Source of the DNA: Candidatus Hodarchaeota archaeon
GTDB taxonomy: Archaea; Asgardarchaeota; Heimdallarchaeia; Hodarchaeales; Hodarchaeaceae
DNA: 23,772 bases
Direction: 5' to 3'
Assembly (NCBI GenBank): GCA_016839785.1
Contig: JAEOTQ010000099.1
Location: forward strand, 1 to 23,772
In this document: positions 2,608 through 22,658 of the stretch, one piece after another
Numbering within the stretch: position 1 is the stretch's first letter
How the letters are laid out: every line of letters starts with the position of its first letter
Notes under the pieces: generated by a model
The model's database searches: none
Told to the model about the DNA's origin: nothing
What the model saw: only the letters and a program-made list of their open reading frames with translations
Position numbers and translations under genes: made by a program

Positions 2608-2702
2608 CTATCCCAGAATTTCATTAATTATTGACTAGCCAAGAAAACGACCTTCTTTAAGGACTCTTCCTCTTTTTTCAGAACTCTGAGATGAAAGGTT
2701 TC

Positions 2703-5700
2703 CTACTTCTTTTTCTCTTTCATCCGTTTTTTCTTTTCTTTCGGATCAAATAACGATGTCATATCATCTAGAATTCCATCAAATAAATCCCCAAAAGCTT
2801 CTTGACTTTGCTCATCACTAAGTGTTATTCCCTCATTTTGGATTGTCGCAGCGTGTTGTGATAATGCGTTATACTCTGATGATCCAACTGGAAATTTTGA
2901 AGCGGTTTTTAAGCAAAATGTAACAATTTCGGATAAGCCATCATTGTCCTCTAGTTCTTGAAACATATCTGTTGACTTGAAAAGTTGATCTATTGTGTCA
3001 GTAATGTTACCTTCTGTAAAAGCTATTTTAGCAGATGTTAAAAGAAATTTTGCTTCCTCTTGCTTAAGATTATTATCCTTGAAATGTTTTAACAGATTCT
3101 CTCTTTCAGAAATTGCCAGTTGATTGCCAACAGGAGATCTATACAATTCTTCATAAATTTCAGCAATTTTTGTTGAATAACGACTTGTCCCTTTTTCTCC
3201 AAAGGCTTTCAAGTTATTCGATGCTGTATTAATGAGAGCGATTGCTGTTTCTGGATCTTCCTCTAGTAGACTTCTACCTGCGGAATAGAACATATTAGTT
3301 ATTTCCACAAGAAGATCTTCCAGTTTTTTTTCTATACTTAGCTGGAGACTCTTTTCACCCCATTCTAGTAATGAAGCAAAATCTCCCATCATGAGGAGAA
3401 ATTTTGCACGTTCGATACTATACGCAATGACTTCCTCTACATTATCAATAACTGAATTAAGTTCTATAATCTGATTAAAAAGTTGAATCACAGCAGGTTG
3501 ATTCTGCTCTTCTTTGTATACTGTTAATCCATGTTCTCTTATTTCTGAGCAAATTGATGTTATTAATTCTGTTGAATTTTCAAGGCTATTAGCTACTTCA
3601 CCTGCTTGATTCCACATTGTTAAGGCGAGATCTAAACGAAGAGGTGCAAAAAGTATTGCATTGTCTTTGTACAATCGCATAGCTTGTTTCTTCATATCAG
3701 CTTCACTGAGAATTTGAAAAAGAGCCTGAAGAATAGCCCACGCCTCTTCAAATTGTTCGTCATGAATCCGAGATTTCTGATCTCGATCAAGTAATGCGAC
3801 AACTTTCTCGGTGAATTCTTCATTTTCAGCATCTAGGCGTTTCAAAAAAGAGAATGTTTGACCATATATTGTGATAGCTTTTTGGTAATCCTCCTTCTCG
3901 GAGGACAATTTTTCCATAATTGGCCAAATGAAGGAGATAAATTGGTCTGGTTTGTTGATTTTTTCGTGGAAATTTAAACTTAAGAGAATCATTTCGGTAA
4001 GGTGAAGTGTATCATCTAGTTTCAAAATAAAGTTGTTAGTCCATTCAACTATCTCTTCTAAATGTGGATGTGATTTATTTTCCTCAAAATATACAGTAAA
4101 AGTTTTCAAAAGAAAATTGTTTATCTCAGTAAAATATTCTGGTTCCACAGCGCTTTCAGCTAGGTTTTGAACAAATGGAAAGAGAAAAGCATTGAAAATA
4201 GCCCTTTTGTGTACAAGAGAAGCAATTGTCTCTAGCTGGTTAATAATAAACAGCTTAGCGGAAAGTAAAGAAGCAGAAAGAGTTTGATCCATTAAATATT
4301 GAAGATTTCTTAGAACAATCTGTTCTAGCTCGGTCTCATTCGCCGCTAATTGGGTCGATTTCGAAATTAATTCAACCGCTACCTTTGGATTCTTCTCTAA
4401 TAATAATGATCCAATTTTGAAATAGAAATCTGCGGCAAGTTCCTTATTGTATGATGAATAAACTGTAAATGTTTGTTCAGCGTAACCTGAAGCAAGTTCC
4501 ATCAAGTTGCTGTTAATTGATTTGTATGTAGTCGCAGCTAATACTTCTCCATGCTTTTCTTTCGAGATAGCTGCCCCCGTTTTGCTGATCAAATAGAGAA
4601 ATTTCTGAAGATCATCTCTCATACTCGTATCCTGAGAAAAAAATGGATCTGACCTTTCAATAAGGTAGTCGATTAGCGATTGCAATTTTTCAGTCGCTTG
4701 TAGTGTTTCAAAATTTCCCTGAGCACGTTCCAAGAAGTCATATTCATACGAAATTTTTCCTTCTTGACCAAGAGTTTGAGCAAATGAAAATGCCGTATCT
4801 CCTGCCATTTCAATATCCCCGAAGTATGTAAACAAATCTACAATAGAGATTAATTGGGTTGCTGCATCATCAAGTTTTCCTTCACTCAGTAGATCTCCAA
4901 AATTACTCTGAAGAAATGTAGTGATTTCTCTTGCTTTCCCAGACTCTTGATATAAATCCCACCATATTTGTGCACAATATTCGAAATAAGGAAGGGCCTG
5001 TATTCTAAGCTTTTTTGTAAACATCAATTGACCATAATTAAACAGATATTCCGTAGTTTGATCAACAATCTCATTATAGTTCGATTTTGAGAGATTAATT
5101 CGTTGGAGTAAATAATGAATACCCTTGTTATTCTGGAATTCAATCGAACCTTTTTTGACTAACAGCATACGTGAGTTAATAACATTATCAGAAATTGTTG
5201 TTCCTTGTTCAAATAAATACGTTAGAATATTTTCAATAATTTCTTGGTTGTCGTGAGTGACTGCAGCGTCAAAAGCATCTGTAATTGTAGAATTAAAGTC
5301 TTCTAGATGATTGGCCTTATCATATATCTGAGCAAGTGACCATAGAAAGGGAGCAACTCTTTTTGGATCATCTGCTTCAAGAAAACCTGCACTTGCAGTT
5401 TTTTGCAACACTCGTGCAATATCGAGCTGTTTTTGAACTTTTTCCAGGGCTTTTAGAGCAAGTATTTGCGCAATTCGGAGAGAAAGTTCCTTTTGAGGAT
5501 AGGGAAGAACATCGGCATTCTGAGACTTAAAAAATCTCATTAAATTCGCTGTATCTTCCATCGCTTCTGCAGGTCGATTTATATCAATGAACCTGTTGAT
5601 CTTTTCAAGTTTCACCTCTAAAATCTTATCCATCACACTTTTATCAAGTACTACCATCTGATAATTTTCTATTGCTTTGTTGAATAGGTTGACACCTTTG

Positions 5701-6173
5701 TTATACTTTTCTTCTTTTCCTAGGAGATGACCGGGTGCTAAAAATTGCTTTCCAAAGTTAAAATAGGTGTCTCCAATATCCTGACTTATTTCATAGGCAA
5801 CAGTTTGATTATCCGCTAGCTGATATAATTCTAATGCCCAAGATAATACTTTCAGTTTGTCTTCTGGTTTAAGATCGTCAATTGTATCTCGCATCCTACC
5901 TGATAGATCCAGAAATGTGGGAAGGAGTTCTTTAATCGCTTTCTGTTGTTCTTCGTGTAATAACTGCTGATAATATTGTTTTGCATAGTCAAACATCAAG
6001 GAATTTTTTCCTGTTTTTTGGGAGGAAAAAAACGCCTTGTTATAGAGTTTCAGACTTCTTTGACCATCTGGGATACTTTTGGCAACTTGGAGATATGTTT
6101 TTGCAGCTTTTTCGAAATTTCCTGCAGATTCAAAAGCTTGGGCTTTTTCTAATTCCTTTTGAACTTCAGACAT
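2703..6173 (-). CDS. Large all-helical repeat protein (TPR/alpha-SNAP-like solenoid), function unknown
   Basis: 1156-aa ORF, acidic and rich in Leu, Glu, Ala and Phe. Helix-pair patterns include AQAFESAGNFEKAAKTYLQVA, DLFTYFGDIEMAGDTAFSFAQ and EEAKFLLTSAKIAFTEGN. No signal peptide or transmembrane helix is visible. Confidence 0.75.
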   Translation of the reverse strand: MSEVQKELEKAQAFESAGNFEKAAKTYLQVAKSIPDGQRSLKLYNKAFFSSQKTGKNSLMFDYAKQYYQQLLHEEQQKAIKELLPTFLDLSGRMRDTIDDLKPEDKLKVLSWALELYQLADNQTVAYEISQDIGDTYFNFGKQFLAPGHLLGKEEKYNKGVNLFNKAIENYQMVVLDKSVMDKILEVKLEKINRFIDINRPAEAMEDTANLMRFFKSQNADVLPYPQKELSLRIAQILALKALEKVQKQLDIARVLQKTASAGFLEADDPKRVAPFLWSLAQIYDKANHLEDFNSTITDAFDAAVTHDNQEIIENILTYLFEQGTTISDNVINSRMLLVKKGSIEFQNNKGIHYLLQRINLSKSNYNEIVDQTTEYLFNYGQLMFTKKLRIQALPYFEYCAQIWWDLYQESGKAREITTFLQSNFGDLLSEGKLDDAATQLISIVDLFTYFGDIEMAGDTAFSFAQTLGQEGKISYEYDFLERAQGNFETLQATEKLQSLIDYLIERSDPFFSQDTSMRDDLQKFLYLISKTGAAISKEKHGEVLAATTYKSINSNLMELASGYAEQTFTVYSSYNKELAADFYFKIGSLLLEKNPKVAVELISKSTQLAANETELEQIVLRNLQYLMDQTLSASLLSAKLFIINQLETIASLVHKRAIFNAFLFPFVQNLAESAVEPEYFTEINNFLLKTFTVYFEENKSHPHLEEIVEWTNNFILKLDDTLHLTEMILLSLNFHEKINKPDQFISFIWPIMEKLSSEKEDYQKAITIYGQTFSFLKRLDAENEEFTEKVVALLDRDQKSRIHDEQFEEAWAILQALFQILSEADMKKQAMRLYKDNAILFAPLRLDLALTMWNQAGEVANSLENSTELITSICSEIREHGLTVYKEEQNQPAVIQLFNQIIELNSVIDNVEEVIAYSIERAKFLLMMGDFASLLEWGEKSLQLSIEKKLEDLLVEITNMFYSAGRSLLEEDPETAIALINTASNNLKAFGEKGTSRYSTKIAEIYEELYRSPVGNQLAISERENLLKHFKDNNLKQEEAKFLLTSAKIAFTEGNITDTIDQLFKSTDMFQELEDNDGLSEIVTFCLKTASKFPVGSSEYNALSQHAATIQNEGITLSDEQSQEAFGDLFDGILDDMTSLFDPKEKKKRMKEKKK

Positions 6174-11435: not shown

Positions 11436-12599
11436 CTATATGTGGAGAAAACACTCCACAAACGACTCTTTGGTGACAACTCGTGGTGGTTTTTCTAATC
11501 GACATTTGCTCATCACATGTTTACATCGTGGATGAAATTTGCATCCACGAGGCCAGTCGTAAGGTTTAGGGATCTTCCCAGGAATTTCTTCCAGAAGTCC
11601 CCCCTTCGTAACTGCATACCAAGGTAATGCATTTAAGAGACCTTGAGAATATGGATGAAGTGGTTCATTCAGGAAATCTGAAACAGAACGTGATTCAATA
11701 ACTTCTCCTCCATACATTACAGCGATAGTGTCTCCAAGTTTAGTCGCCGCCCCGATATTATGGGTAGCAAACATATAAGACCCTCCTAGGTCTTTCTTTA
11801 ATGTTTGAATCAGCTCAATAATTATTGCTTGGTTCGCGGGATCAAGCGAGGCAAGAGGCTCATCTGCCAAAAGAATCTCTGGATCTGCAATTAATGCCAT
11901 TGAAATGCAAACTCTTTGAGCTTGTCCATGGCTTAAACTGTCTACATATTTCTTGTAATTAATTTTAGGCTCTGGAAGAGCTACTTTTCCAAGAAATTCG
12001 TACACTCTCTCCTTGATTTTCTCTTGTCTCAATGATAATCTTTCTAAGAGAATTTCTCCCGATTGAAAACCTATGGTTAACCAAGGGTTTAGGGATTCCT
12101 TGGGTAATTGAGGGATGTACCCAATTTTCACTCCTCTAAATTCATTCATGCCTCTATTATCAAGAGAAAGAAGATTAATCGGGGGAGAAGAGTCATCGGG
12201 GTAATAATTTATTTCTCCTTCAAGTAATGCAAGATAATTGGCAAAGAGCTGGAGAATTGAGTTGAGAAGTGTCGATTTTCCACAACCTGTTTCTCCAATA
12301 ATGCATAATGATTCCCCTCTATGCAGTGTAAGTGATGCTGTATCAACAGCTTTTATCACGAGCTGCTCCAGTTCATAGGTATAATCAATTCCATCAATAT
12401 CTCGTTTTTCACGCCCGAAAGACCAGTAGTTTTCAATTGCTTGTTTCTCAAGTGGTTTAGGTTCAAACGATGGCCGAAATTGAAGCATTTCCATTAATTT
12501 TGCATCTAATCCTTGAGTGATGTCAAATCCCTTTAACTGATAATAGCATTTTAAATCTTTTATCTTCAAAATTATGTCATTTAATGGGGTGAAATTCAT
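11436..12599 (-). CDS. oppD: Oligopeptide/dipeptide ABC ATP-binding protein (OppD-like), atypical
   Basis: Walker A GETGCGKST, Q-loop YIPQ, Walker B ILLADEP, H-loop ATHN and C-terminal PLHPYS...GCKFHPRC...C...C. The signature reads LSHGQ. Confidence 0.88.
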   Translation of the reverse strand: MNFTPLNDIILKIKDLKCYYQLKGFDITQGLDAKLMEMLQFRPSFEPKPLEKQAIENYWSFGREKRDIDGIDYTYELEQLVIKAVDTASLTLHRGESLCIIGETGCGKSTLLNSILQLFANYLALLEGEINYYPDDSSPPINLLSLDNRGMNEFRGVKIGYIPQLPKESLNPWLTIGFQSGEILLERLSLRQEKIKERVYEFLGKVALPEPKINYKKYVDSLSHGQAQRVCISMALIADPEILLADEPLASLDPANQAIIIELIQTLKKDLGGSYMFATHNIGAATKLGDTIAVMYGGEVIESRSVSDFLNEPLHPYSQGLLNALPWYAVTKGGLLEEIPGKIPKPYDWPRGCKFHPRCKHVMSKCRLEKPPRVVTKESFVECFLHI

Positions 12600-13702: not shown

Positions 13703-15961
13703 ATGAGACTAAAAAGTAAAATTACGCTTTATGCGTTTTTAACTACCTTTGTTTTCTTAGCCAACATGGCAAGCCCTGCGGCTGCAGCTGTATTCGAGGT
13801 CAAGTTCCCTGATACTTTGATCATCGAAACAATTGACAAACCACAGACGCTTGATCCTAGTAGTAGCTATGAAACTTTTGGTGGATCATTAGTTGACGGT
13901 ATATATGAATTTTTAATTACATACGGTCACGGCGCAAGTGATCTTGAAGGTGAAGTCGCCTCAGGTTGGAATGTCGCAGCTGACGGAAAATCTATCAACT
14001 TCACAATTGAACCAGGACACTTTTTCGTACTCCCAGAAACAGGAGTTAGTACAGGCATTGAAATCAATGCATGGCATGTGAAATACTCTATTGATCGTAC
14101 AAACATTATGGCCGATCCTGACGGATATGGTTGGATGTTAGACGGTCTGATCACAGGTGCAAATTCCCACCAAGACTTAAACATCTCTGAAGCACAAGAT
14201 TACATTGCTGCAGGTGGTGTCGAAGTTCTTAATGATATGCTTGTAAGAGTCAATCTTGATTTTGCATATTCAGCCGCTGTCACAATCTTTGCATTTAATG
14301 CAGGAATTGTTATGAATCCAGTATGGATTGCAGAAGAAGCCCCAGGTACTTATACACAAGATACAGGTGGAAAAACTGCCGAAGATAATGCAACTGGAAT
14401 GTTCTCCTTCACCGACTGGTTTGCAGGCGAGAACGTCACTGAAATTATGGTTGACAAACTTGGTTTCGACGCAGCATGGGATCCACTAGATTCTGGTGTA
14501 GTTCCTTCAACTGGTGTAAACAGTCCCTATCGTCATGAGAGAGCAACCCTTTCTGGATGTGGAAGTGGTCCTTACTTCCTGCTTGAAACTCAAACCACAT
14601 ATGGTCAAGCAATCAAACTGCAAAAGAATCTACTTTGGGAAGGTTTCGTTACTGGACAAGGTGGCCCTGATTGGGAAACAGCCCCAGAATTATGGCCTAA
14701 TGCCCCCGAGTACGTCTTGATCAAGACAGTAAATGAACCTAATACTCGTTTACTCGATTTACAATCAGGTGATTGTGATTTACCAGGTCTACCAACCTCT
14801 CTTGCTGATCAAGTGATTGATATCGACGCATTCCTTGACGATGGTACCATTGAACCAATTATTGATGACGTCATTACCTTCCAAGTTCCTTCATTGACTG
14901 TAATCTTCTTGGGTATGAACCAAAAAGATGTTATTTCCGATGAATGGCTAGAAGAGGCATCATGGTCAGCATATAATGCAAGCGATTGGTATCCATATGC
15001 ATGGAGTGAAGACGAAGGAAATCCAACATTCACTGACAATCGAACACTACATAACAACGTCTTTGCGAACTACTTGTTCCGTCAAGCATTTATCAAATCA
15101 CTCGACGCTGAGGCTTATTTAGCCCAAGTGTTAAACGGATTTGGTATTATTCCTCAAGGATGTATTCCTTACGGACTTATGGGACACGCAGACTTCTTAA
15201 TCGATGAAGGTTATCAACCAACATACGATCCCGATGGTGCAAAAGCACTCTTCCAGACACTAGGTTGGCAAGGAGCAATCACCTTATGCTTCAACGAAGG
15301 TAATACAAACCGCCGAGCTGCAGCCCTCTTACTAGAGAGCGCAATCGAAGGTATGAATGTCGGCATTAGTATCAGTATCCGAGAAGTTAGCTGGCCAACT
15401 TACCTAGCCATTTACAAAACGCTCCCAGCGTTCTTAATTGGATGGGCACCAGACTATGCAGATCCAGACAACTATGTAGATCCATTCTATGGAACTTACT
15501 TTGCACAGCAATTGAACTACTCCAATCCCACAGTTCTCGATATGATGAACGAAGCTAAAGCAGAACCAAGTCAAGCTGCTCGTGAGCAGTTATACTTCGA
15601 CATTGAAAGGAATGCGTCATTAGACTATCCCTTCGTGCCTCTGTATCAAGGATTTGGTCTTTCAGTTCGCAGAAATTGGATCCAAGGTGATTATGACAGC
15701 GTTATCAATCCTATGAGAAACGGCGGTCAACCTTGGGAACGATTAGAGAAGGCGGAATTCATCACAACCACAACGACAACCACGACTACCACAACAACTA
15801 CTGAGACCACAACGACTACTGCTGGCACCTCTACTTCCTCTACTCCCGCAGAAACAACGGAAGAAACAACTACAGATGACGGTGGACCTGGATTCGAGTT
15901 TGCAGCCTTCTTAATTGCAGCTTCCTTAATGGCAATCTACTATCGCAAGCGAAGACGTTAA
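13703..15961 (+). CDS. oppA: Peptide ABC transporter substrate-binding protein (family 5, OppA/DppA-like) with Thr-rich linker and PGF-type C-terminal sorting signal
   Basis: Signal peptide (MRLKSK...SPAAAA), PQTLDP, YEFLI, VKYSIDR, GSGPY, RQAF, GWAPDYADPDNY and REQLY motifs. The C-terminus is a poly-Thr tract, then GPGFE, a TM helix and RKRRR. Confidence 0.92.
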   Translation: MRLKSKITLYAFLTTFVFLANMASPAAAAVFEVKFPDTLIIETIDKPQTLDPSSSYETFGGSLVDGIYEFLITYGHGASDLEGEVASGWNVAADGKSINFTIEPGHFFVLPETGVSTGIEINAWHVKYSIDRTNIMADPDGYGWMLDGLITGANSHQDLNISEAQDYIAAGGVEVLNDMLVRVNLDFAYSAAVTIFAFNAGIVMNPVWIAEEAPGTYTQDTGGKTAEDNATGMFSFTDWFAGENVTEIMVDKLGFDAAWDPLDSGVVPSTGVNSPYRHERATLSGCGSGPYFLLETQTTYGQAIKLQKNLLWEGFVTGQGGPDWETAPELWPNAPEYVLIKTVNEPNTRLLDLQSGDCDLPGLPTSLADQVIDIDAFLDDGTIEPIIDDVITFQVPSLTVIFLGMNQKDVISDEWLEEASWSAYNASDWYPYAWSEDEGNPTFTDNRTLHNNVFANYLFRQAFIKSLDAEAYLAQVLNGFGIIPQGCIPYGLMGHADFLIDEGYQPTYDPDGAKALFQTLGWQGAITLCFNEGNTNRRAAALLLESAIEGMNVGISISIREVSWPTYLAIYKTLPAFLIGWAPDYADPDNYVDPFYGTYFAQQLNYSNPTVLDMMNEAKAEPSQAAREQLYFDIERNASLDYPFVPLYQGFGLSVRRNWIQGDYDSVINPMRNGGQPWERLEKAEFITTTTTTTTTTTTTETTTTTAGTSTSSTPAETTEETTTDDGGPGFEFAAFLIAASLMAIYYRKRRR
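15764..15874 (+). repeat. Low-complexity Thr-rich (ACN)n coding tract
   Basis: Encodes TTTTTTTTTTTTETTTTTAGTSTSSTPAETTEETTT with mixed synonymous codons. Confidence 0.85.
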
Positions 15962-16145: not shown

Positions 16146-17234
16146 ATGAAATACAGAAATTATGTAATAAAGCGCTTAATTTTATTAATTCCAATGCTAT
16201 TTGGAATAAGTTTTATTACATGGTATCTCAGCGATATTGCTGGCGATCCCCTTGCTCCTTACGTTTCCCCAAATCAATTACCACTACCTGAAGAACTAGA
16301 AGCTGAATTACGAGAAAGATATGGCTTGAACAGACCCTGGCCTGTTCGATACATGGAATATATGCTTAATTTGCTATCAGGGGATTGGGGAAATAGCTAT
16401 GCTCTGGGGAATCGCGGCATTCCAGTCATGTCACTTCTTCAGACAGCTTTTCCAGCATCCATTGAATTAGGTCTGACTGCTATGGTCATTGCATTAATTG
16501 TAGGGGTCCCAGCTGGAATATATACTGCAAGAACGAAACGTCCAAAATTAAAAACTTTTGTCAATGGAGTATCTATTACTGGAATGGCAATTCCTTCATT
16601 TCTCCTAGCGATTATCGTCCAGTACTTAATAGTACAATTATTTCTTGGCTTAGGAAGGACATTTCATGATTCTTACATCATGAATTGGGCACCGTACCAT
16701 TACCGATATAATATCTGGCAATTGGCATATCCAAGGCGTATCTTGTTTGGTTTATTACCAACCACAGGATTTCTTCTGATCGATAGCCTTCTTGCGCCAG
16801 ATTTAGTTTTATTTATCGATGGATTTTTTCATTTAATTACGCCAGCATTAATTATTGCTGTTTCACAAATTCTAATAATCACTCGAATCACAAGAAATGC
16901 GATGGTAGAGGTTTTAAAAGAGGATTACATTCTACTTGCTAAAGCGAAAGGCCTACCAGAAAGAATTATTATTTACCGGCATGCACTTAAGAATGCGGCA
17001 ATACAAGTAACAACTATTGTAAGTTTAGTGCTTGCAAACTTGTTGAGTGGAGTAATATTCGTTGAAGTCGTCTTTAGCTGGCCAGGTCTGGGAATGTTTA
17101 TGTTAGCAGGTGTCAAGAGTCTTGATATGCCCACTATTAATGGATTTGTTGTATTTTCCACGCTTCTTTACGTTTTCATCAATTTAGCTGTTGATATTCT
17201 CTATGGTTTGATAGATCCGAGAATAAGAACATAA
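16146..17234 (+). CDS. oppB: Peptide ABC transporter permease, OppB/DppB type (paralogue 2)
   Basis: YVIKRLILLIPMLFG, GDP, YGLNRP, GDWGNS, FPASIEL, EAA loop LAKAKGL..HALKNA, EVVFSWPGLG and DPRIR. Confidence 0.93.
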   Translation: MKYRNYVIKRLILLIPMLFGISFITWYLSDIAGDPLAPYVSPNQLPLPEELEAELRERYGLNRPWPVRYMEYMLNLLSGDWGNSYALGNRGIPVMSLLQTAFPASIELGLTAMVIALIVGVPAGIYTARTKRPKLKTFVNGVSITGMAIPSFLLAIIVQYLIVQLFLGLGRTFHDSYIMNWAPYHYRYNIWQLAYPRRILFGLLPTTGFLLIDSLLAPDLVLFIDGFFHLITPALIIAVSQILIITRITRNAMVEVLKEDYILLAKAKGLPERIIIYRHALKNAAIQVTTIVSLVLANLLSGVIFVEVVFSWPGLGMFMLAGVKSLDMPTINGFVVFSTLLYVFINLAVDILYGLIDPRIRT

Positions 17235-17264: not shown

Positions 17265-17522
17265 TTATGCAGGAGACTGAAATTGATGGAAAAATACCGA
17301 AAGAAGAAATAGAATCGCCATGATTATGAGTAGAGGGAGAAATACTGTTTGGATGAGTGCAATAAAGAGGGCGATGTAATCTTTGAAGTCAAGTTCAGCA
17401 CCAGCGAGATCAGTATCCGTATGTTCTGATGTAAGGCTTAAATATTGCGGATTCACTGGCGCTGCAAGAAACGGATCGTTTGTGGGAAGTGATAGTTCCT
17501 TTTTTTTCTGATCATCACTCAT
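17265..17522 (-). CDS. Small membrane protein, last gene of the opp operon
   Basis: ATG 17522 follows a GAGGT SD-like motif, 17 nt after the oppF stop. It has a hydrophilic N-terminus followed by ELDFKDYIALFIALIQTVFLPLLIIMAILFLL. Confidence 0.7.
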   Translation of the reverse strand: MSDDQKKKELSLPTNDPFLAAPVNPQYLSLTSEHTDTDLAGAELDFKDYIALFIALIQTVFLPLLIIMAILFLLSVFFHQFQSPA

Positions 17523-17539
17523 AAGGATCAACCTCTAGT

Positions 17540-18577
17540 TTATTCTCTGAAATGGCAGGAGATATAATGGGAGGCTTCTGTTTTTTTCAATTCAGGTACT
17601 TTTTCTGCACAAATCTGCCTTGCTTCGGGACATCTAGTATGAAAACGACATCCTGGAGGGGGATTTGCTGGGTTGGGGACATCACCACGAAGGATAATCT
17701 GCTTTTTCTCGTATAAAGGATCAGGAATAGGTAATGCGGATCCAAGTGCTAAGGTATAAGGATGTACCTCGGCACTTTTAAGAGTAAAAATGCGTTTTGG
17801 ACCGATTTCCAAGATTTTACCAAGGTACATTACCATAACGACGTCACTCATATGAGTAACAACAGATAAATCGTGGGAAATAAACATGTACGTCAGGTTA
17901 CGTAATTGTTGCAGTCTTTTCAGCAAATTTAAAACACGTGCTTGCACTGAAACATCAACTGAAGCTGTAGGTTCATCCAAAACAACAAAATGAGGATTCA
18001 AGACCAATGCACGTGCGATACAAACACGTTGCCGTTGACCACCACTGAACTCATGTGGGAATCTATTTAGATGTTCAAGATCTAACCCTACTTCTCTCAT
18101 TACTCTGAGAATATAATTGTTGATTTGTCTCTTCCGCATTGTCTTATGAACTAGCATAGGTTCCCTTAAAATATTTTTGACCATCATTCTAGGATTTAAG
18201 CTTGCATATGGATCTTGGAATACAATCTGCATCTCTCTACGAACCCTGCGAAACCTTCGAAGACTCATTTGGGCGATATTTTCTCCTTCGAAATAAATTT
18301 CACCAGAAGTAGGTTCACTTAATCGCAAAATTGTTCTCCCGAGCGTCGTTTTTCCACAACCAGATTCACCTACAACACCAATAGTCTTCCCTCTGGGAAT
18401 ATCAAACGTAACGTCATCTACTGCATGAACATGACCGACAACTCGAGATAAAATTCCACTAGTTATTGGGAAGAATTTTACCAAGTTTCTTACAGACAAG
18501 ATATTCTCCGCGTCACTATCTGTTTCTGGGCTAATGTCGCTTTGGGATTGATTTTCACTTGTACTCATTTTTTTCAC
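17540..18577 (-). CDS. oppF: Oligopeptide ABC ATP-binding protein (OppF/DppF)
   Basis: GESGCGKTT, VFQDPYASLNPR, FPHEFSGGQRQR, VVLDEPT, FISHDL and PPGCRFHTRC. The start is either GTG 18577 (overlapping the oppD stop) or ATG 18568. Confidence 0.95.
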   Translation of the reverse strand: MKKMSTSENQSQSDISPETDSDAENILSVRNLVKFFPITSGILSRVVGHVHAVDDVTFDIPRGKTIGVVGESGCGKTTLGRTILRLSEPTSGEIYFEGENIAQMSLRRFRRVRREMQIVFQDPYASLNPRMMVKNILREPMLVHKTMRKRQINNYILRVMREVGLDLEHLNRFPHEFSGGQRQRVCIARALVLNPHFVVLDEPTASVDVSVQARVLNLLKRLQQLRNLTYMFISHDLSVVTHMSDVVMVMYLGKILEIGPKRIFTLKSAEVHPYTLALGSALPIPDPLYEKKQIILRGDVPNPANPPPGCRFHTRCPEARQICAEKVPELKKTEASHYISCHFRE

Positions 18578-19611
18578 ACCTTTCCTTCATATTCACGTTG
18601 CTTAACATGGCAATGAACCCAATGTTCAGGAAGCACTTTGACCAATTTTGGCCTTTCTTGGGCACAAATATCCTCTTTTAAGGGGCAACGAGGATGGAAT
18701 CTACAACCTGATGGAGGATTCACTAGATTAGGAACTACTCCGTCAATAGAATCCAAGAGGTCCTTCGGTTTGTGAAGTAGGGGAATAGATCTTAACAAAC
18801 CTTGAGTATATGGATGAATAGGATCAACGAATAATGCTTTGGTTTCTGCCACTTCTGCAATCTGTCCTCCATATAAGACAGCTACACGGTCACACATTTC
18901 AGCTACTATTCCTAGATTATGTGTAACGAAGATTAGTGTTCGCCCCAGATCTTTTTTCAGTTTATTTAATAAATTGAGAATTTGTGCCTGAATAGTTACG
19001 TCTAGAGCGGTGGTGGCTTCATCAGCTATGATAATATCAGGATCTGCTGCAATAGACATTGCAATTAAAACTCTTTGTCTCATTCCTCCTGAAAGCTCAT
19101 GAGGATATCGTTTAAATAACTCAGCAGCGTCAGGAAGTTTGACTAAGTCAAAAATTTCAACCACTTTTTCTTTTAAGTATTTTGATAGTTTCTTTTTGTT
19201 GTCTAAAATATCCTTTTGGATTTTTTGGTGAATTAGAAACATCTCAGAAACTTGTTCACCAATTTGAATAACTGGGTTAAGAAAAGTCATGGGATCCTGA
19301 AAGATCATCGTCATTTTGGCACCACGTAATTTCCGAATTTCTTTTTCTTTGAGTTTTAAGACATCATTACCTTTGTAGAAAATCTCACCCTCGACAATCT
19401 TACCTGGTTCTTCAATTAATCTCATTACAGATCTGACGGTAACGGATTTTCCACACCCTGTTTCTCCAACTAATCCAAAGCTTTCTCCTTTATAGATAGA
19501 AAGATCTATCCCATCTAGAGCTTTCACGACGCCTTCGTACGTGTAGAAGTTTACTTTCAGGTTCTTGATATCCAGAATTACATCTTGAGTATTTGCTGTT
19601 GCTTCTGTCAT
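18574..19611 (-). CDS. oppD: Oligopeptide ABC ATP-binding protein (OppD/DppD)
   Basis: GETGCGKS, IFQDPM, YPHELSGGMRQR, IIADEATTALD, VTHN and HPYT...GCRFHPRC. Confidence 0.95.
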   Translation of the reverse strand: MTEATANTQDVILDIKNLKVNFYTYEGVVKALDGIDLSIYKGESFGLVGETGCGKSVTVRSVMRLIEEPGKIVEGEIFYKGNDVLKLKEKEIRKLRGAKMTMIFQDPMTFLNPVIQIGEQVSEMFLIHQKIQKDILDNKKKLSKYLKEKVVEIFDLVKLPDAAELFKRYPHELSGGMRQRVLIAMSIAADPDIIIADEATTALDVTIQAQILNLLNKLKKDLGRTLIFVTHNLGIVAEMCDRVAVLYGGQIAEVAETKALFVDPIHPYTQGLLRSIPLLHKPKDLLDSIDGVVPNLVNPPSGCRFHPRCPLKEDICAQERPKLVKVLPEHWVHCHVKQREYEGKV

Positions 19612-19632
19612 TATTTTTAGCTCCTTTGTCTC

Positions 19633-21549
19633 CTATCGACGTAGTTTAGGATCCATAACGTCCCTAACTCCATCACCAACAAGATTAAACGCAAGGACTA
19701 TCAGAAATATAAATATTCCCGGGAAGAATACTAGCCATGGTGCTGAAAGGAAATACTGTCTTCCAGAAGAAATCATAATTCCTAGTTCTGCATCACCAGG
19801 TTGAGCTCCGAATCCAATGAAACTAAGTCCTGCTGCTGTAAGAACCACACCGCCAAGATCAAGAGTAGCGGCAACAAGCAGTGGATAAATGCTGTTAGGT
19901 AAGATGTGTCTAAATAAGATTCGCATGTCACCCATACCGATAGATCTAGCTGCCTCTACGTATAAACGATTTTTCTCGCTAATAACCTGCCCCCGCGCAA
20001 TACGTGCGTAACCAGACCACCAAACTATAATCATAGCGATAGAAAGATTGAATAAATTCGGGCCTAATGCGGCTGCTATTGACATGGCAAGAATAAGACC
20101 AGGAAATGCGAAAAAGATATCCGTAATCCGCATCATCAGATTATCCACCCATCCGCCGAAATAACCTGCTAAACCTCCAATTATTGTTCCAACAACTGCG
20201 GCAACAGATACTATCCAGACGGCAAGGAAAAAATCAGTACGTAATGCCCAACAAATCCTACTCCATATATCTCCACCTTGTTCATCCGTTCCTAGTAAGT
20301 GAAATCTTCCATCAACTTCATAGTATTGGAAATTGTAGATTACCGATCCATTATTTGCGAATATTATTAGATCACTTGCGTTATCTCCAGTAAAATCAGT
20401 CCATCGAAAATCTAAAAATGGTTCTTCTGGGAGGGCAGGAAATTCAAATAACACCGAGGCTTCACTTTTATCTAGTGGAAGGAATTGTGGATCCTTTACA
20501 ACACTTGATGCAGTATAATATTCATACTTACCAGAATCAAACATTAATATCATATCTGGTCGTTGATCGTTGTTAATGAAAGCAAAATAAATCCTCAATG
20601 ATCCTGTTGTTGCTGTTGTTGGATTTATTTCTAGAATTTTTCCAGTCACATTTTTGGGTCCATAAGGTACTGGTTTACCAGCCCAGTTGTATGTAAGAAC
20701 TCCAAAAGAATAATGTGTTCGATTTCCTCTATTCATATACGTATAAATTTGATAGCGACCTGTATTCGCGTCAATGTCTGATGTAACTATGAGATCCAAT
20801 AAATGCGATCCATTATCATACGTTTTTTCCTCTCCGGAATCAAAATCAATGAGAGAAGGACTTGCTTGACCAGTAAAATTAAACATTTGACCAGCTGAAT
20901 TATTAAGAATGGAGAAAGCTGTCCAAGCTGGTGTCGCGGGGGTTCCTTTATTCAGACTAACATAGAGATGTCCATCGTCACCACCAATTATGACATCAGT
21001 GTCATTGTCCCCATCTAGATCTCCAGCAGTAGGAACAACTCTGGTTACACCTTCAGGAATGGGCATATCAAAGTAATCATCTCTCAATTCCCAATTAAGT
21101 TTTTCTTCAGTTGCTCCTCTGTTTTCAAAGAAGAGCAAGGAGGCTTCCGATGTATCTGTGCTCGCTGTCCCTACCATGAAATCATCTAATGAATTATTCG
21201 TAAAATCAGCAACCCAAGTTCGTGCTTTGAGATCAGGGTCAAGATCGAAATCACCGCTCAATGAAGAGTAACCTGTCCATTTCAAAGTCGTTCTCTCATC
21301 AGTAGTAAAAGGGGGTTCATTCATGATTCTAATATCAAATTCTCTGGGACCATAACTTGCGATAATTGGTGCAAAGATAGCTAACGCTAAAAGGAAAACT
21401 ATCACAATAAAACCAATTATAAAGAGAGGACTTTTACGTAAAAGAGAAATGGCATACCTGATTTCTTTCCAGCGTGCTTTAAGTGATACTCTGAATGAGA
21501 AAACGTCTTCGTGAATTTCTTCGCCTAAGTATTCTGTATCTGATACCAT
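19633..21549 (-). CDS. oppC: Peptide ABC permease OppC/DppC type with a large extracellular FG-GAP/VCBS-repeat insertion
   Basis: OppC N-terminal TM (AIFAPII), HLLGTD..G.DIWSR, MRITDIF.AFP, YVEAARSIG...HILPN and AFNLVGDGVRDVMDP. At 638 aa it is about twice the usual ~300. The insert carries D-x-[TDN]-x-[DN]-x-x-x-D repeats. Confidence 0.92.
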   Translation of the reverse strand: MVSDTEYLGEEIHEDVFSFRVSLKARWKEIRYAISLLRKSPLFIIGFIVIVFLLALAIFAPIIASYGPREFDIRIMNEPPFTTDERTTLKWTGYSSLSGDFDLDPDLKARTWVADFTNNSLDDFMVGTASTDTSEASLLFFENRGATEEKLNWELRDDYFDMPIPEGVTRVVPTAGDLDGDNDTDVIIGGDDGHLYVSLNKGTPATPAWTAFSILNNSAGQMFNFTGQASPSLIDFDSGEEKTYDNGSHLLDLIVTSDIDANTGRYQIYTYMNRGNRTHYSFGVLTYNWAGKPVPYGPKNVTGKILEINPTTATTGSLRIYFAFINNDQRPDMILMFDSGKYEYYTASSVVKDPQFLPLDKSEASVLFEFPALPEEPFLDFRWTDFTGDNASDLIIFANNGSVIYNFQYYEVDGRFHLLGTDEQGGDIWSRICWALRTDFFLAVWIVSVAAVVGTIIGGLAGYFGGWVDNLMMRITDIFFAFPGLILAMSIAAALGPNLFNLSIAMIIVWWSGYARIARGQVISEKNRLYVEAARSIGMGDMRILFRHILPNSIYPLLVAATLDLGGVVLTAAGLSFIGFGAQPGDAELGIMISSGRQYFLSAPWLVFFPGIFIFLIVLAFNLVGDGVRDVMDPKLRR

Positions 21550-21572
21550 TAGTATAACCTCATATCACTCCA

Positions 21573-22658
21573 TTAGTCAAATCGGATTCGCGGGTCGACT
21601 ACAGCGTAGAGAATATCTACAGCTAAATTGCTTAGTACATAGATCAACGCCGTGATGATAACAAAACCTTGAATAGCTGCCGTGTCGAGTACTGAGACCG
21701 ATTCTACTGCCCACCAACCTAAACCTGGCCAATCAAAGACTGTTTCAGTAAGTACTGCTCCAGTCATTAATCCCGCAAGAGCTAATCCAGCTACGGTCAA
21801 TGTAGGAATAATTGCATTGCGTAAGGCGTGTCGATATATAATTACACGCTCGGTTAATCCTTTAGATCTGGCCAAAAGGATAAAATCCTTTTTCATTGTT
21901 TCTAACATTGCCATTCTCGTCATTCTAGTTATAATTGCCATTTGTACCCATGATAAACAGAATGATGGGGCAAAAATATGTAAAAATACATCAAAGAATA
22001 AGGGTATGTCGAAGTTCAGCAACGAGTCTATCAATAGAAACCCTGTTGCACCAAAATTTCCAAATAATATGGTTCGGGGAACTACGTATTTATTTAATGT
22101 CAACCGCTCATGATAAGGTATATTGAAAGGAAGATTTGCTCCATCCATGAAAACATTGAAGTTGAATAAGATGATTTGGACCATCAATCCAAGCCAAAAT
22201 ATAGGCATTGATACTCCACTTAAGGCTGTTATCCGTGATACTTGATCTGCCATTTTATCCTTTTTTATAGCCGATATTATTCCCAAGGGTACTCCTATCG
22301 CTATTGCTAAAATCATAGAATATACAGCTAGTTCAGCAGAAGCTGGAAATCTATCTGCAATGATCTCGAGCACCGGTTGGTTCTGTAAAGTTGGGGAACG
22401 TCCCCAATCACCCTGCAAGAGGCGTGTGAGGTAGATCCAAAAACGGTCTAGAATTGGTTTATCTAATCCTAATTGTACTCTTAATTGTTCGATCCTTTCA
22501 GGAGGAGTTTTATCAAGAGCTGTACCAATATAAGCGGCTACAGGATCGCCCACACTATCACTTAAAATAAATGTAACAATGCTAACCCCAAAAAGAACTG
22601 GGATTAACAGAATCAATCTTTTAAAAATATATTCTCTAAGCTTCATATATTCAACCAC
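21573..22658 (-). CDS. oppB: Peptide ABC transporter permease, OppB/DppB type (paralogue 1)
   Basis: YIFKRLILLIPVLFG, GLDKP, GDWGRS, FPASAEL, SMPIFW, LARSKGL..HALRNA, TETVFDWPGLG and DPRIR. The start is GTG 22658 or ATG 22646. Confidence 0.94.
   Translation of the reverse strand: MVEYMKLREYIFKRLILLIPVLFGVSIVTFILSDSVGDPVAAYIGTALDKTPPERIEQLRVQLGLDKPILDRFWIYLTRLLQGDWGRSPTLQNQPVLEIIADRFPASAELAVYSMILAIAIGVPLGIISAIKKDKMADQVSRITALSGVSMPIFWLGLMVQIILFNFNVFMDGANLPFNIPYHERLTLNKYVVPRTILFGNFGATGFLLIDSLLNFDIPLFFDVFLHIFAPSFCLSWVQMAIITRMTRMAMLETMKKDFILLARSKGLTERVIIYRHALRNAIIPTLTVAGLALAGLMTGAVLTETVFDWPGLGWWAVESVSVLDTAAIQGFVIITALIYVLSNLAVDILYAVVDPRIRFD

Follow-up and report, generated by a model that had tools for sequence, protein, structure and literature searches.

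Why should the channel subunit of an archaeal peptide-class importer carry a large folded domain in a loop that measures about a dozen residues in E. coli DppC? The question is raised by contig JAEOTQ010000099.1 of a Candidatus Hodarchaeota archaeon (assembly GCA_016839785.1, order Hodarchaeales), whose 23,772 nucleotides (nt) are called the window here. ABC (ATP-binding cassette) importers are usually pictured as a bare channel with a separate solute-binding protein (SBP), the P2 loop of MalF being the textbook exception. We showed that the window encodes the OppC subunit of a Dpp/Opp-type (peptide/nickel class) ABC importer, with a 334-residue domain in the loop between transmembrane helices 1 and 2 (TM1-TM2). 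The domain is predicted to be a beta-propeller. Our preferred reading, to which we give a probability of roughly 35–40%, is that it would serve as an accessory extracellular head docking a tethered family-5 SBP, by analogy with the docking of MalE by MalF P2.

The fused permease gene

The 638-amino-acid (aa) permease, P0001, is encoded by a single uninterrupted open reading frame (ORF). Pfam OppC_N matched aa 32-80 (39.4 bits against a cut-off of 23.9, E 5.4e-10), where the hydrophobic segment, aa 32-69, aligns to TM1 of E. coli DppC, and BPD_transp_1 matched aa 454-638 (117.5 bits against 26.4) over its whole profile, 1-184. The matches to the NCBIfam OppC, DppC, NikC and GsiD models began only at aa 415-417, and an EAA-type stretch, YVEAARSIGMGDMRILFRHILPN, is readable in the translated core. 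With the E. coli DppC structure (8z1v chain B) the core gave 198.9 bits, and the alignment fell into two blocks, P0001 residues 41-73 on DppC 30-62 and residues 413-637 on DppC 75-299; the TM1-TM2 stretch, about 12 residues in DppC, therefore extends to about 340 here. The original prediction had placed some 330 extra residues between TM1 and the HLLGTD motif (20308-21306, aa 82-414), and Pfam, NCBIfam and the 8z1v_B alignment agree with it, about 334 residues (aa 81-414) lying between TM1 and the HLLGTD core.

The OppC_N TM1, the BPD_transp_1 core and the EAA loop are shared with the OppC/DppC permeases (E. coli DppC, 8z1v chain B; M. tuberculosis Rv1282c, 8j5q chain C), and the surrounding operon resembles Dpp/Opp operons in having OppB, two oligo_HPY-type ATPases and a family-5 SBP. 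Unlike the characterised OppC and DppC types, P0001 fell below the cut-off of every substrate-specific NCBIfam equivalog (nickel, dipeptide, oligopeptide, glutathione and others; the best was Opp2C, 258.8 against 300), so a substrate cannot be assigned. On every family feature tested except the equivalog match, P0001 belongs to the OppC/DppC permease family.

A chimeric assembly, which the original prediction had allowed for, or a mis-joined reading frame has a probability close to nil and is excluded. Contigs from separate public runs bridge both junctions: X1 (19500-20518, 0 differences) and X2 (19640-20763) span 20307/20308, and the junction near 21306 is spanned by an X1 contig (21218-21376) and by X3 (21200-22580, 1381 bases, 9 differences), which comes from the RNA library of another study and runs through OppB. 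The RNA-library contigs over the gene (X3 and X5) are no proof of transcription. The reading frame is unbroken, and the same fusion occurs in six genomes and in many database proteins.

The six genomes are among 24 of the order, five of 22 in the window's genus and one of two in a second family (G022). One of those in the genus is a single contig, and the G022 copy is split across two contig ends. Among the fused relatives the core is much more conserved than the insert (67-97% against 30-79% identity). Among OppC cores of the genus that lack an insert, identity does not exceed 50% even in the closest, so that no orthologue without the insert was seen there. The named close relatives are all proteins of Hodarchaeales metagenome-assembled genomes (MAGs), filed as 'ABC transporter permease'. 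When the permease core was used as query, PF13517 or PF01839 accompanied PF00528 in 19 of the best 120 clusters, to which P0001 and P0003 are additional, their inserts lying below the Pfam threshold. The 19 include P0195 and P0197 (596 aa), labelled Candidatus Thorarchaeota, and P0199 (608 aa), labelled Promethearchaeota; these three are collinear with P0001, and share its insertion site, its PP-x-T-x-D...W start, its five loops and its D-G-R-x-H...GTD end. To judge by these alignments, the fused architecture is conserved across Asgard lineages.

With the window insert and the P0195 insert as queries, no fused form was found outside the order in 301 sampled genomes of the phylum, a sample of one genome per species that does not demonstrate absence; the weak matches were FG-GAP proteins without a permease core. 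A search for loci related to P0195 returned 36, of which 35 were core-only matches to bacterial OppC and one was a weak FG-GAP match, with no Thorarchaeota locus among them. Protein Atlas rows scored 0.83-0.87, short of the reliability mark of 0.9, and were set aside; they comprised archaeal clusters of 751-752 aa and a bacterial cluster of 585 aa, 12% of whose members carry PSII_BNR.

No published description of an OppC-type permease with an FG-GAP or propeller ectodomain was found in the full-text literature, a coverage that leaves aside subscription journals and supplementary files. The architecture is real and undescribed, and the general idea has a precedent in MalF P2. The original prediction had called it unfamiliar, which agrees with the literature search; it is not unique, however, as it recurs in Asgard MAG proteins and paralogues bear other ectodomains at the same loop.

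Fold and orientation of the insert

A word-indexed search with aa 81-414 returned five close relatives and then long repeat proteins carrying PF01839 or PF13517. phmmer with the insert against 1.84 billion representatives gave 2325 matches at E<=1e-3, 605 at E<=1e-10 and 36 at E<=1e-30, mostly long multi-repeat FG-GAP/VCBS proteins with up to 35 aligned stretches within one target; the strongest region was query 90-160 (protein aa 170-240), and the best Pfam FG-GAP_3/FG-GAP stretch of P0001 was aa 174-237. The Pfam cut-off of FG-GAP_3 or FG-GAP was passed by four relatives, P0004 (38.3 bits), P0050 (41.4/33.7), the G016 copy (39.5/39.9) and P0047 (34.7). Judged from these matches, the insert is a member of the FG-GAP/VCBS repeat superfamily, and the earlier description of an OppC-type permease with an FG-GAP-type domain in its TM1-TM2 loop is borne out.

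An AlphaFold2 (AF2) model of aa 78-418, made with a family alignment of 13 rows, was all-beta, with a mean pLDDT (predicted local distance difference test) of 81.8 and a pTM (predicted template-modelling score) of 0.84. Propellers filled both structure searches with this model. Foldseek ranked integrin alpha heads first (4wk2_A, E 6.5e-6, probability 1.0), at TM-scores (template-modelling scores) of just 0.34-0.42 and a root-mean-square deviation (rmsd) of 7-10 Å. VIA, which is independent of Foldseek, gave as its best global matches, so far as these were recognised, five-bladed propellers (4mlg_A, Z 16.1, rmsd 3.6 over 250 aa; 7znr_A, Z 15.5), and the 50 matches listed ranged over Z 12.4-16.1 at 5-11% identity. 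In the family alignment five strand-loop-strand units follow the pattern hydrophobic-x-D-x-[DN]-x-[DN]-x-x-x-D-hydrophobic-G; the five repeats of the original prediction are real and correspond in the model to the inner strand, loop and second strand of five blades. The insert models confidently as a five-bladed beta-propeller of FG-GAP/VCBS blades. A strand at its N-terminal end (LKWTG), whose W is almost invariant across the family, probably completes blade 5 and brings the ends of the insert together, to judge from strand order alone; insertion into a loop requires adjoining ends, which fits such a closure. Two points weigh against this assignment. P0001 itself lies under the Pfam FG-GAP cut-offs (FG-GAP_3 at aa 177-237, 20.9 against 26.9 bits; the other 13.2 against 22.1), and both the number of blades and the closure of the ring come from a single AF2 model built on the 13-row alignment.

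The complete D-x-D-x-D-x-x-x-D pattern is found in P0001 only in the loop of blade 2 (aa 177-185). The loops of blades 1 and 5 are near-canonical and those of blades 3 and 4 degenerate, and in the relatives blades 1, 3 and 5 come nearer to the pattern. The Ca2+-type hairpins claimed earlier are thus reduced in P0001 to one canonical loop, and the propeller probably binds Ca2+ structurally.

Blade sequence homology and the blade 2 loop connect the domain with the integrin alpha head and with bacterial FG-GAP/VCBS proteins. The head of integrin alpha has seven blades. The domain differs from it in having five blades in the model, in its low TM-scores and in lying inside a polytopic membrane protein. 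The label of an integrin-alpha-like propeller accordingly survives as FG-GAP homology and as a propeller model, but not in blade number or closest fold, the integrin TM-scores of 0.34-0.42 standing against a Z of 16 for five-bladed propellers. Five-blade geometry is shared with the propellers of glycoside hydrolase (GH) families 43, 32 and 62 (4mlg_A, 7znr_A). Since identity to them is 5-11% and sequence searches return FG-GAP proteins, the domain is not regarded as a member of these families; a GH43-like identity was dropped because only similarity of fold supports it, and Pfam and NCBIfam scans gave no match of P0001 to a glycosidase family. A paper in which FG-GAP and five-bladed propellers both occur (PMC4735018) deals with tachylectin-type propellers and not with a five-bladed FG-GAP domain. 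A five-bladed FG-GAP propeller would widen the known range of this repeat.

The insert almost certainly faces outside, as had been predicted, and we place the propeller with high confidence atop the channel's OppC half, next to the docking position of the SBP. In the DppC/OppC fold TM1 is N-in and the first loop is outward, and the 8z1v_B alignment puts the insert in that loop. Its nine N-x-S/T sequons, confirmed on recounting, compare with one in the rest of P0001 and with a mean of 3.4 (standard deviation 1.6) in shuffles of the insert, nine being reached in 0.22% of 5000 shuffles; N118, N276 and N182 are retained in 9, 8 and 7 of the 13 family rows. The net charge of the insert is -29. Free-standing propeller paralogues begin with a signal sequence and end in a TM segment and a basic tail. 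The outside location is drawn from these observations, and N-glycosylation of the propeller is predicted with high confidence. In an Asgard archaeon, N-x-S/T glycosylation has been reported chiefly on a solute-binding protein (PMC11284389).

Proposed docking of the binding protein and competing functions

The order OppB, fused OppC, OppD, OppF of the window is maintained in G004, G002, G019 and G016. The two ATPases of the window were identified by orthology to the G016 copy, whose OppF orthologue carries ABC_tran and oligo_HPY in Pfam. Convergent to the operon lies the gene of the SBP P0174, which the original prediction had described as tethered; the poly-Thr linker and a C-terminal end of PGF-CTERM type (GGPGF...RKRRR) agree with this. 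The P0174 gene adjoins the fused operon in the window, and its orthologue does so in G004 and G002. In G022, of another family of the order, SBP, OppB and fused OppC are co-directional, with OppB before OppC; the G019 contig stops after OppF. SBP matches at E<=1e-100 are confined to the five genomes of the genus that have a fused OppC, and P0174 is likely the cognate binding protein of the fused importer.

The docking reading was drawn from this gene linkage and from a co-fold. P0174 would hang from the membrane by its long poly-Thr linker and PGF-CTERM anchor; the propeller, through its protein surface or its glycans, would catch the SBP and orient it over the OppB/OppC entrance, and binding protein and channel would thereby stay associated. 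SBP residues 30-685 were co-folded with the propeller in three runs, with three controls. The scores were 0.01, 0.47 and 0.55 (median 0.47) against 0.00 for the best control, a weak result; the runs share at least 48% of contacts, with a partner pLDDT of at least 75. For calibration, 80 solved complexes and 110 mismatched pairs had been scored; 58 of the former and 2 of the latter passed the mark, and scores of 0.60 or less came from just 7 of the 80 solved complexes and from both passing mismatches.

The analogue is the MalF P2 loop (residues 91-276, immunoglobulin-like), which is reported to bind MalE with a dissociation constant of 7-22 μM (PMC6906923). Both cases have a folded extra domain in an outward loop of an ABC importer permease. 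The two are not homologous, and P2 is an immunoglobulin-like domain of about 185 aa in TM3-TM4 of MalF, whereas the propeller has 334 aa and sits in TM1-TM2 of OppC. SBP binding was measured for P2 and is weakly predicted by the co-fold for the propeller; a P2-like working of the propeller is suggested only by analogy.

The same module also occurs away from any transporter. In the window's own genome, contig C202 encodes the free-standing P0004 (419 aa, 62% identical). P0004 lies there between two paralogous proteins of about 260 aa (L002:617-1408, 1423-2682 and 2689-3471), both with a signal sequence and a PGF/SGF-type C-terminal anchor, and the trio may be a small surface-protein cluster. 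An unrooted tree was made of 12 propeller domains, the partial G022 copy being left out. Free-standing P0004 and P0005 nest inside a fused clade (support 100/99) and free-standing P0050 pairs with fused P0047 (97/95), so that the free-standing forms require two changes; the tree, being unrooted, does not give the direction of the conversions. The propeller behaves as a movable cassette, whose fused and free-standing forms have interconverted at least twice.

Such mobility would suit an envelope or adhesion module that contacts the cell's own surface layer, its glycocalyx or a partner cell, with OppC as a mere anchor, or that positions the transporter in the envelope. The free-standing paralogues are anchored surface proteins flanked by others of the kind, the interconversions fit, and Heimdallarchaeial genomes encode FG-GAP ectodomains joined to a TM helix and a cytoplasmic domain. 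Against this, the insert is kept in the same loop of the same transporter, with conserved boundaries, from Hodarchaeales to Thorarchaeota-labelled proteins, a constancy that suggests a tie to transport, and a single C-terminal anchor would display an adhesin more simply. We hold this role to be rather improbable. In the Heimdallarchaeial proteins (476-515 aa; L080-L090, e.g. L083:1207-2634 and L082:625-2154, minus strand) about five FG-GAP repeats follow a signal peptide, and a single TM helix leads to a conserved cytoplasmic domain of about 130 aa; their topology is receptor-like and integrin-like, and none has a permease core.

Other OppC paralogues of the genus bear different inserts in this TM1-TM2 loop. 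One class, of about 500 aa and seen in eight genomes (L034-L041, e.g. L035:1132-1716, minus strand; eight genes inspected), has an insert of about 170 aa, which models as a beta-sandwich (pLDDT 73.3, residues 39-184 confident) resembling carbohydrate-binding modules (CBMs): CBM11 (1v0a, E 4e-6), CBM16 (2zex, TMt 0.59), CBM61, CBM4 and CBM22, at E 4e-6 to 1e-4. A class of about 570 aa (564-588 aa; seven genes in six genomes, L019:484-2193 and L028-L033) has an insert of about 280 aa, and Pfam matched nothing in it besides OppC_N and BPD_transp_1. A single 499-aa OppC-like gene of G008 (L021:709-2205) has a further loop insert of about 200 aa, starting NHGFEDESMW, which looks CBM-like by eye only. 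When 61 genomes of the class were surveyed with PF12911 (OppC_N), an open frame of at least 495 aa was found for 32 among the 150 matches listed, and the 20 of these that were inspected (five FG-GAP forms, seven of about 570 aa and eight of about 500 aa) all have their extra residues in the TM1-TM2 loop. Frame length is an unsafe proxy for a loop insert, because in the Thorarchaeota-labelled P0216, P0208 and P0276, whose OppC cores come nearest to the FG-GAP group without belonging to it, an N-terminal extension of about 140 aa with several hydrophobic segments precedes OppC_N and accounts for part or all of the length; P0208 and P0276 also have a loop insert of about 140 aa.

The CBM-like sandwich speaks for our second choice, in which the propeller is a receptor head for cargo that captures glycan, glycopeptide or peptide chains in a lectin-like manner and concentrates them at the channel mouth or passes them to the SBP. 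Among FG-GAP propellers there are lectins, and oligosaccharides can be substrates of archaeal Opp/Dpp-class transporters. Besides the sister insert, the best global structure matches of the propeller are carbohydrate-active five-bladed propellers, and the module is also displayed free-standing on the surface. These matches are of fold alone, however, no binding-site residues were pinpointed, and the operon retains an ordinary adjoining SBP, so that a second receptor would be unneeded. A cargo receptor seems to us unlikely, less so than the envelope role.

Docking of the tethered SBP is still the reading we prefer, and several observations weigh against it. The gene that best matches the SBP in G016 is about 630 kb away from the operon. 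The co-fold score falls in a range that the tool rates as more often wrong than right, and one run gave 0.01. A free-standing module away from any transporter argues for a binding function independent of the channel, and a CBM-like sandwich at the same site in a paralogous OppC class points to glycan binding over a protein-specific dock; together, the last two suit a ligand- or glycan-binding head at least as well.

The faster evolution of the insert than of the core would be expected of a passive cap or spacer without a specific ligand, which shields or stabilises the channel or docks another enzyme, for example a secreted protease. About 3.5 kb upstream of the fused-operon OppB, G016 encodes an S8 subtilase of 1239 aa that has a zinc ribbon at its C-terminus (L024:3856-7572). 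The subtilase could fit an enzyme dock, and among five loci compared it was seen at this one only. Against a passive element, widely diverged relatives retain the five-blade layout, the boundaries and several of the loop motifs, and we consider this explanation very improbable.

Taken together, the inserts allow a broader and doubtful reading for Asgard OppC-type permeases, which as a whole we put a little below docking itself. The first outward loop of OppC may be a site where folded surface modules are swapped in and out. The modules, which comprise a five-bladed FG-GAP propeller, a CBM-like sandwich and one or more other folds, may be traded with free-standing surface proteins anchored by PGF-CTERM. 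Each importer's own receptor head would select the tethered, glycosylated SBP or the polymer fed on, and the five-bladed FG-GAP domain would be a propeller form so far undescribed for the repeat family.

The Asgard archaea are the archaea nearest to eukaryotes, and here one of them builds a whole propeller, of the repeat type that makes up the integrin head, into a peptide-class importer's channel subunit. Should the propeller dock a tethered SBP or capture cargo, it would reveal how cells that lack a periplasm keep receptor and channel together, and would provide a tractable example of a domain inserted into a polytopic membrane protein. Its present value is that of a well-defined target for structural and biochemical work, with a function that we infer.

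Neighbouring genes and coordinates

The coordinates of the operon, the binding protein and the parts of the fused permease are given in Table 1.

Table 1. Features of the fused-permease locus, in window positions
Feature	Position (nt)	Strand	Basis
OppC/DppC-type ABC importer permease with inserted propeller (P0001)	19633..21549	-	ORF, translation, Pfam, NCBIfam
aa 1-80, cytoplasmic N-terminus and TM1 (OppC_N)	21310..21549	-	Pfam, hydrophobicity, DppC alignment
aa 81-414, inserted ectodomain, modelled as five-bladed propeller of FG-GAP-type blades	20308..21309	-	phmmer, AF2, Foldseek, VIA
N-terminal strand LKWTG, aa 87-91	21277..21291	-	model strand E10-14
Blade 1, aa 109-155, loop DFTNNSLDD	21085..21225	-	model strands, family alignment
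Blade 2, aa 170-212, canonical Ca2+-type loop DLDGDNDTD (aa 177-185, nt 20995-21021)	20914..21042	-	motif scan
Blade 3, aa 230-289, 7-residue loop insertion common to P0002 only	20683..20862	-	model, alignment
Blade 4, aa 318-360, degenerate loop INNDQRPD, then low-confidence linker aa 357-367	20470..20598	-	model, alignment
Blade 5, aa 380-412, loop DFTGDNASD	20314..20412	-	model, alignment
aa 415-638, permease core TM2-TM6, EAA loop YVEAARSIGMGDMRILFRHILPN	19636..20307	-	BPD_transp_1, DppC alignment
OppB-type partner permease, directly upstream of fused OppC	21573..22658	-	Pfam BPD_transp_1 and BPD_transp_1_N
OppD-type ATPase	18574..19611	-	Walker A in translation; 63-90% identical orthologues in same place in four relatives
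OppF-type ATPase	17540..18577	-	ORF; G016 orthologue 79% identical over 202 aa
Family-5 SBP P0174, 752 aa: signal peptide, SBP_bac_5, poly-Thr linker, PGF-CTERM-like anchor	13703..15961	+	Pfam, sequence

Further transporter genes lie near the operon. After the SBP gene lies a second OppB-type permease (16146-17234, plus strand), 45% identical to the operon OppB and without an OppC of its own, which is present in G004 and absent beside the G002 locus. A lone OppD/F-like ATPase with an oligo_HPY tail occupies 11436-12599 (minus strand). Only two OppC-type genes were found in the window's genome, which is 84.5% complete. In the SBP of G022 (L042:2753-4867, contig C401) the two halves are swapped relative to that of the window, query 422-673 preceding 35-418, which points either to lobes that are circularly permuted or to a fault in the assembly.

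Directly downstream of OppF, an 88-aa ORF (17265-17531, minus strand) has one C-terminal hydrophobic segment. Pfam matched nothing at E<=1e-3 in a 1156-aa ORF (2703-6173, minus strand), of which conserved copies at 77% identity lie beside CitMHS and MacB/FtsX-type genes in G002 and G019.

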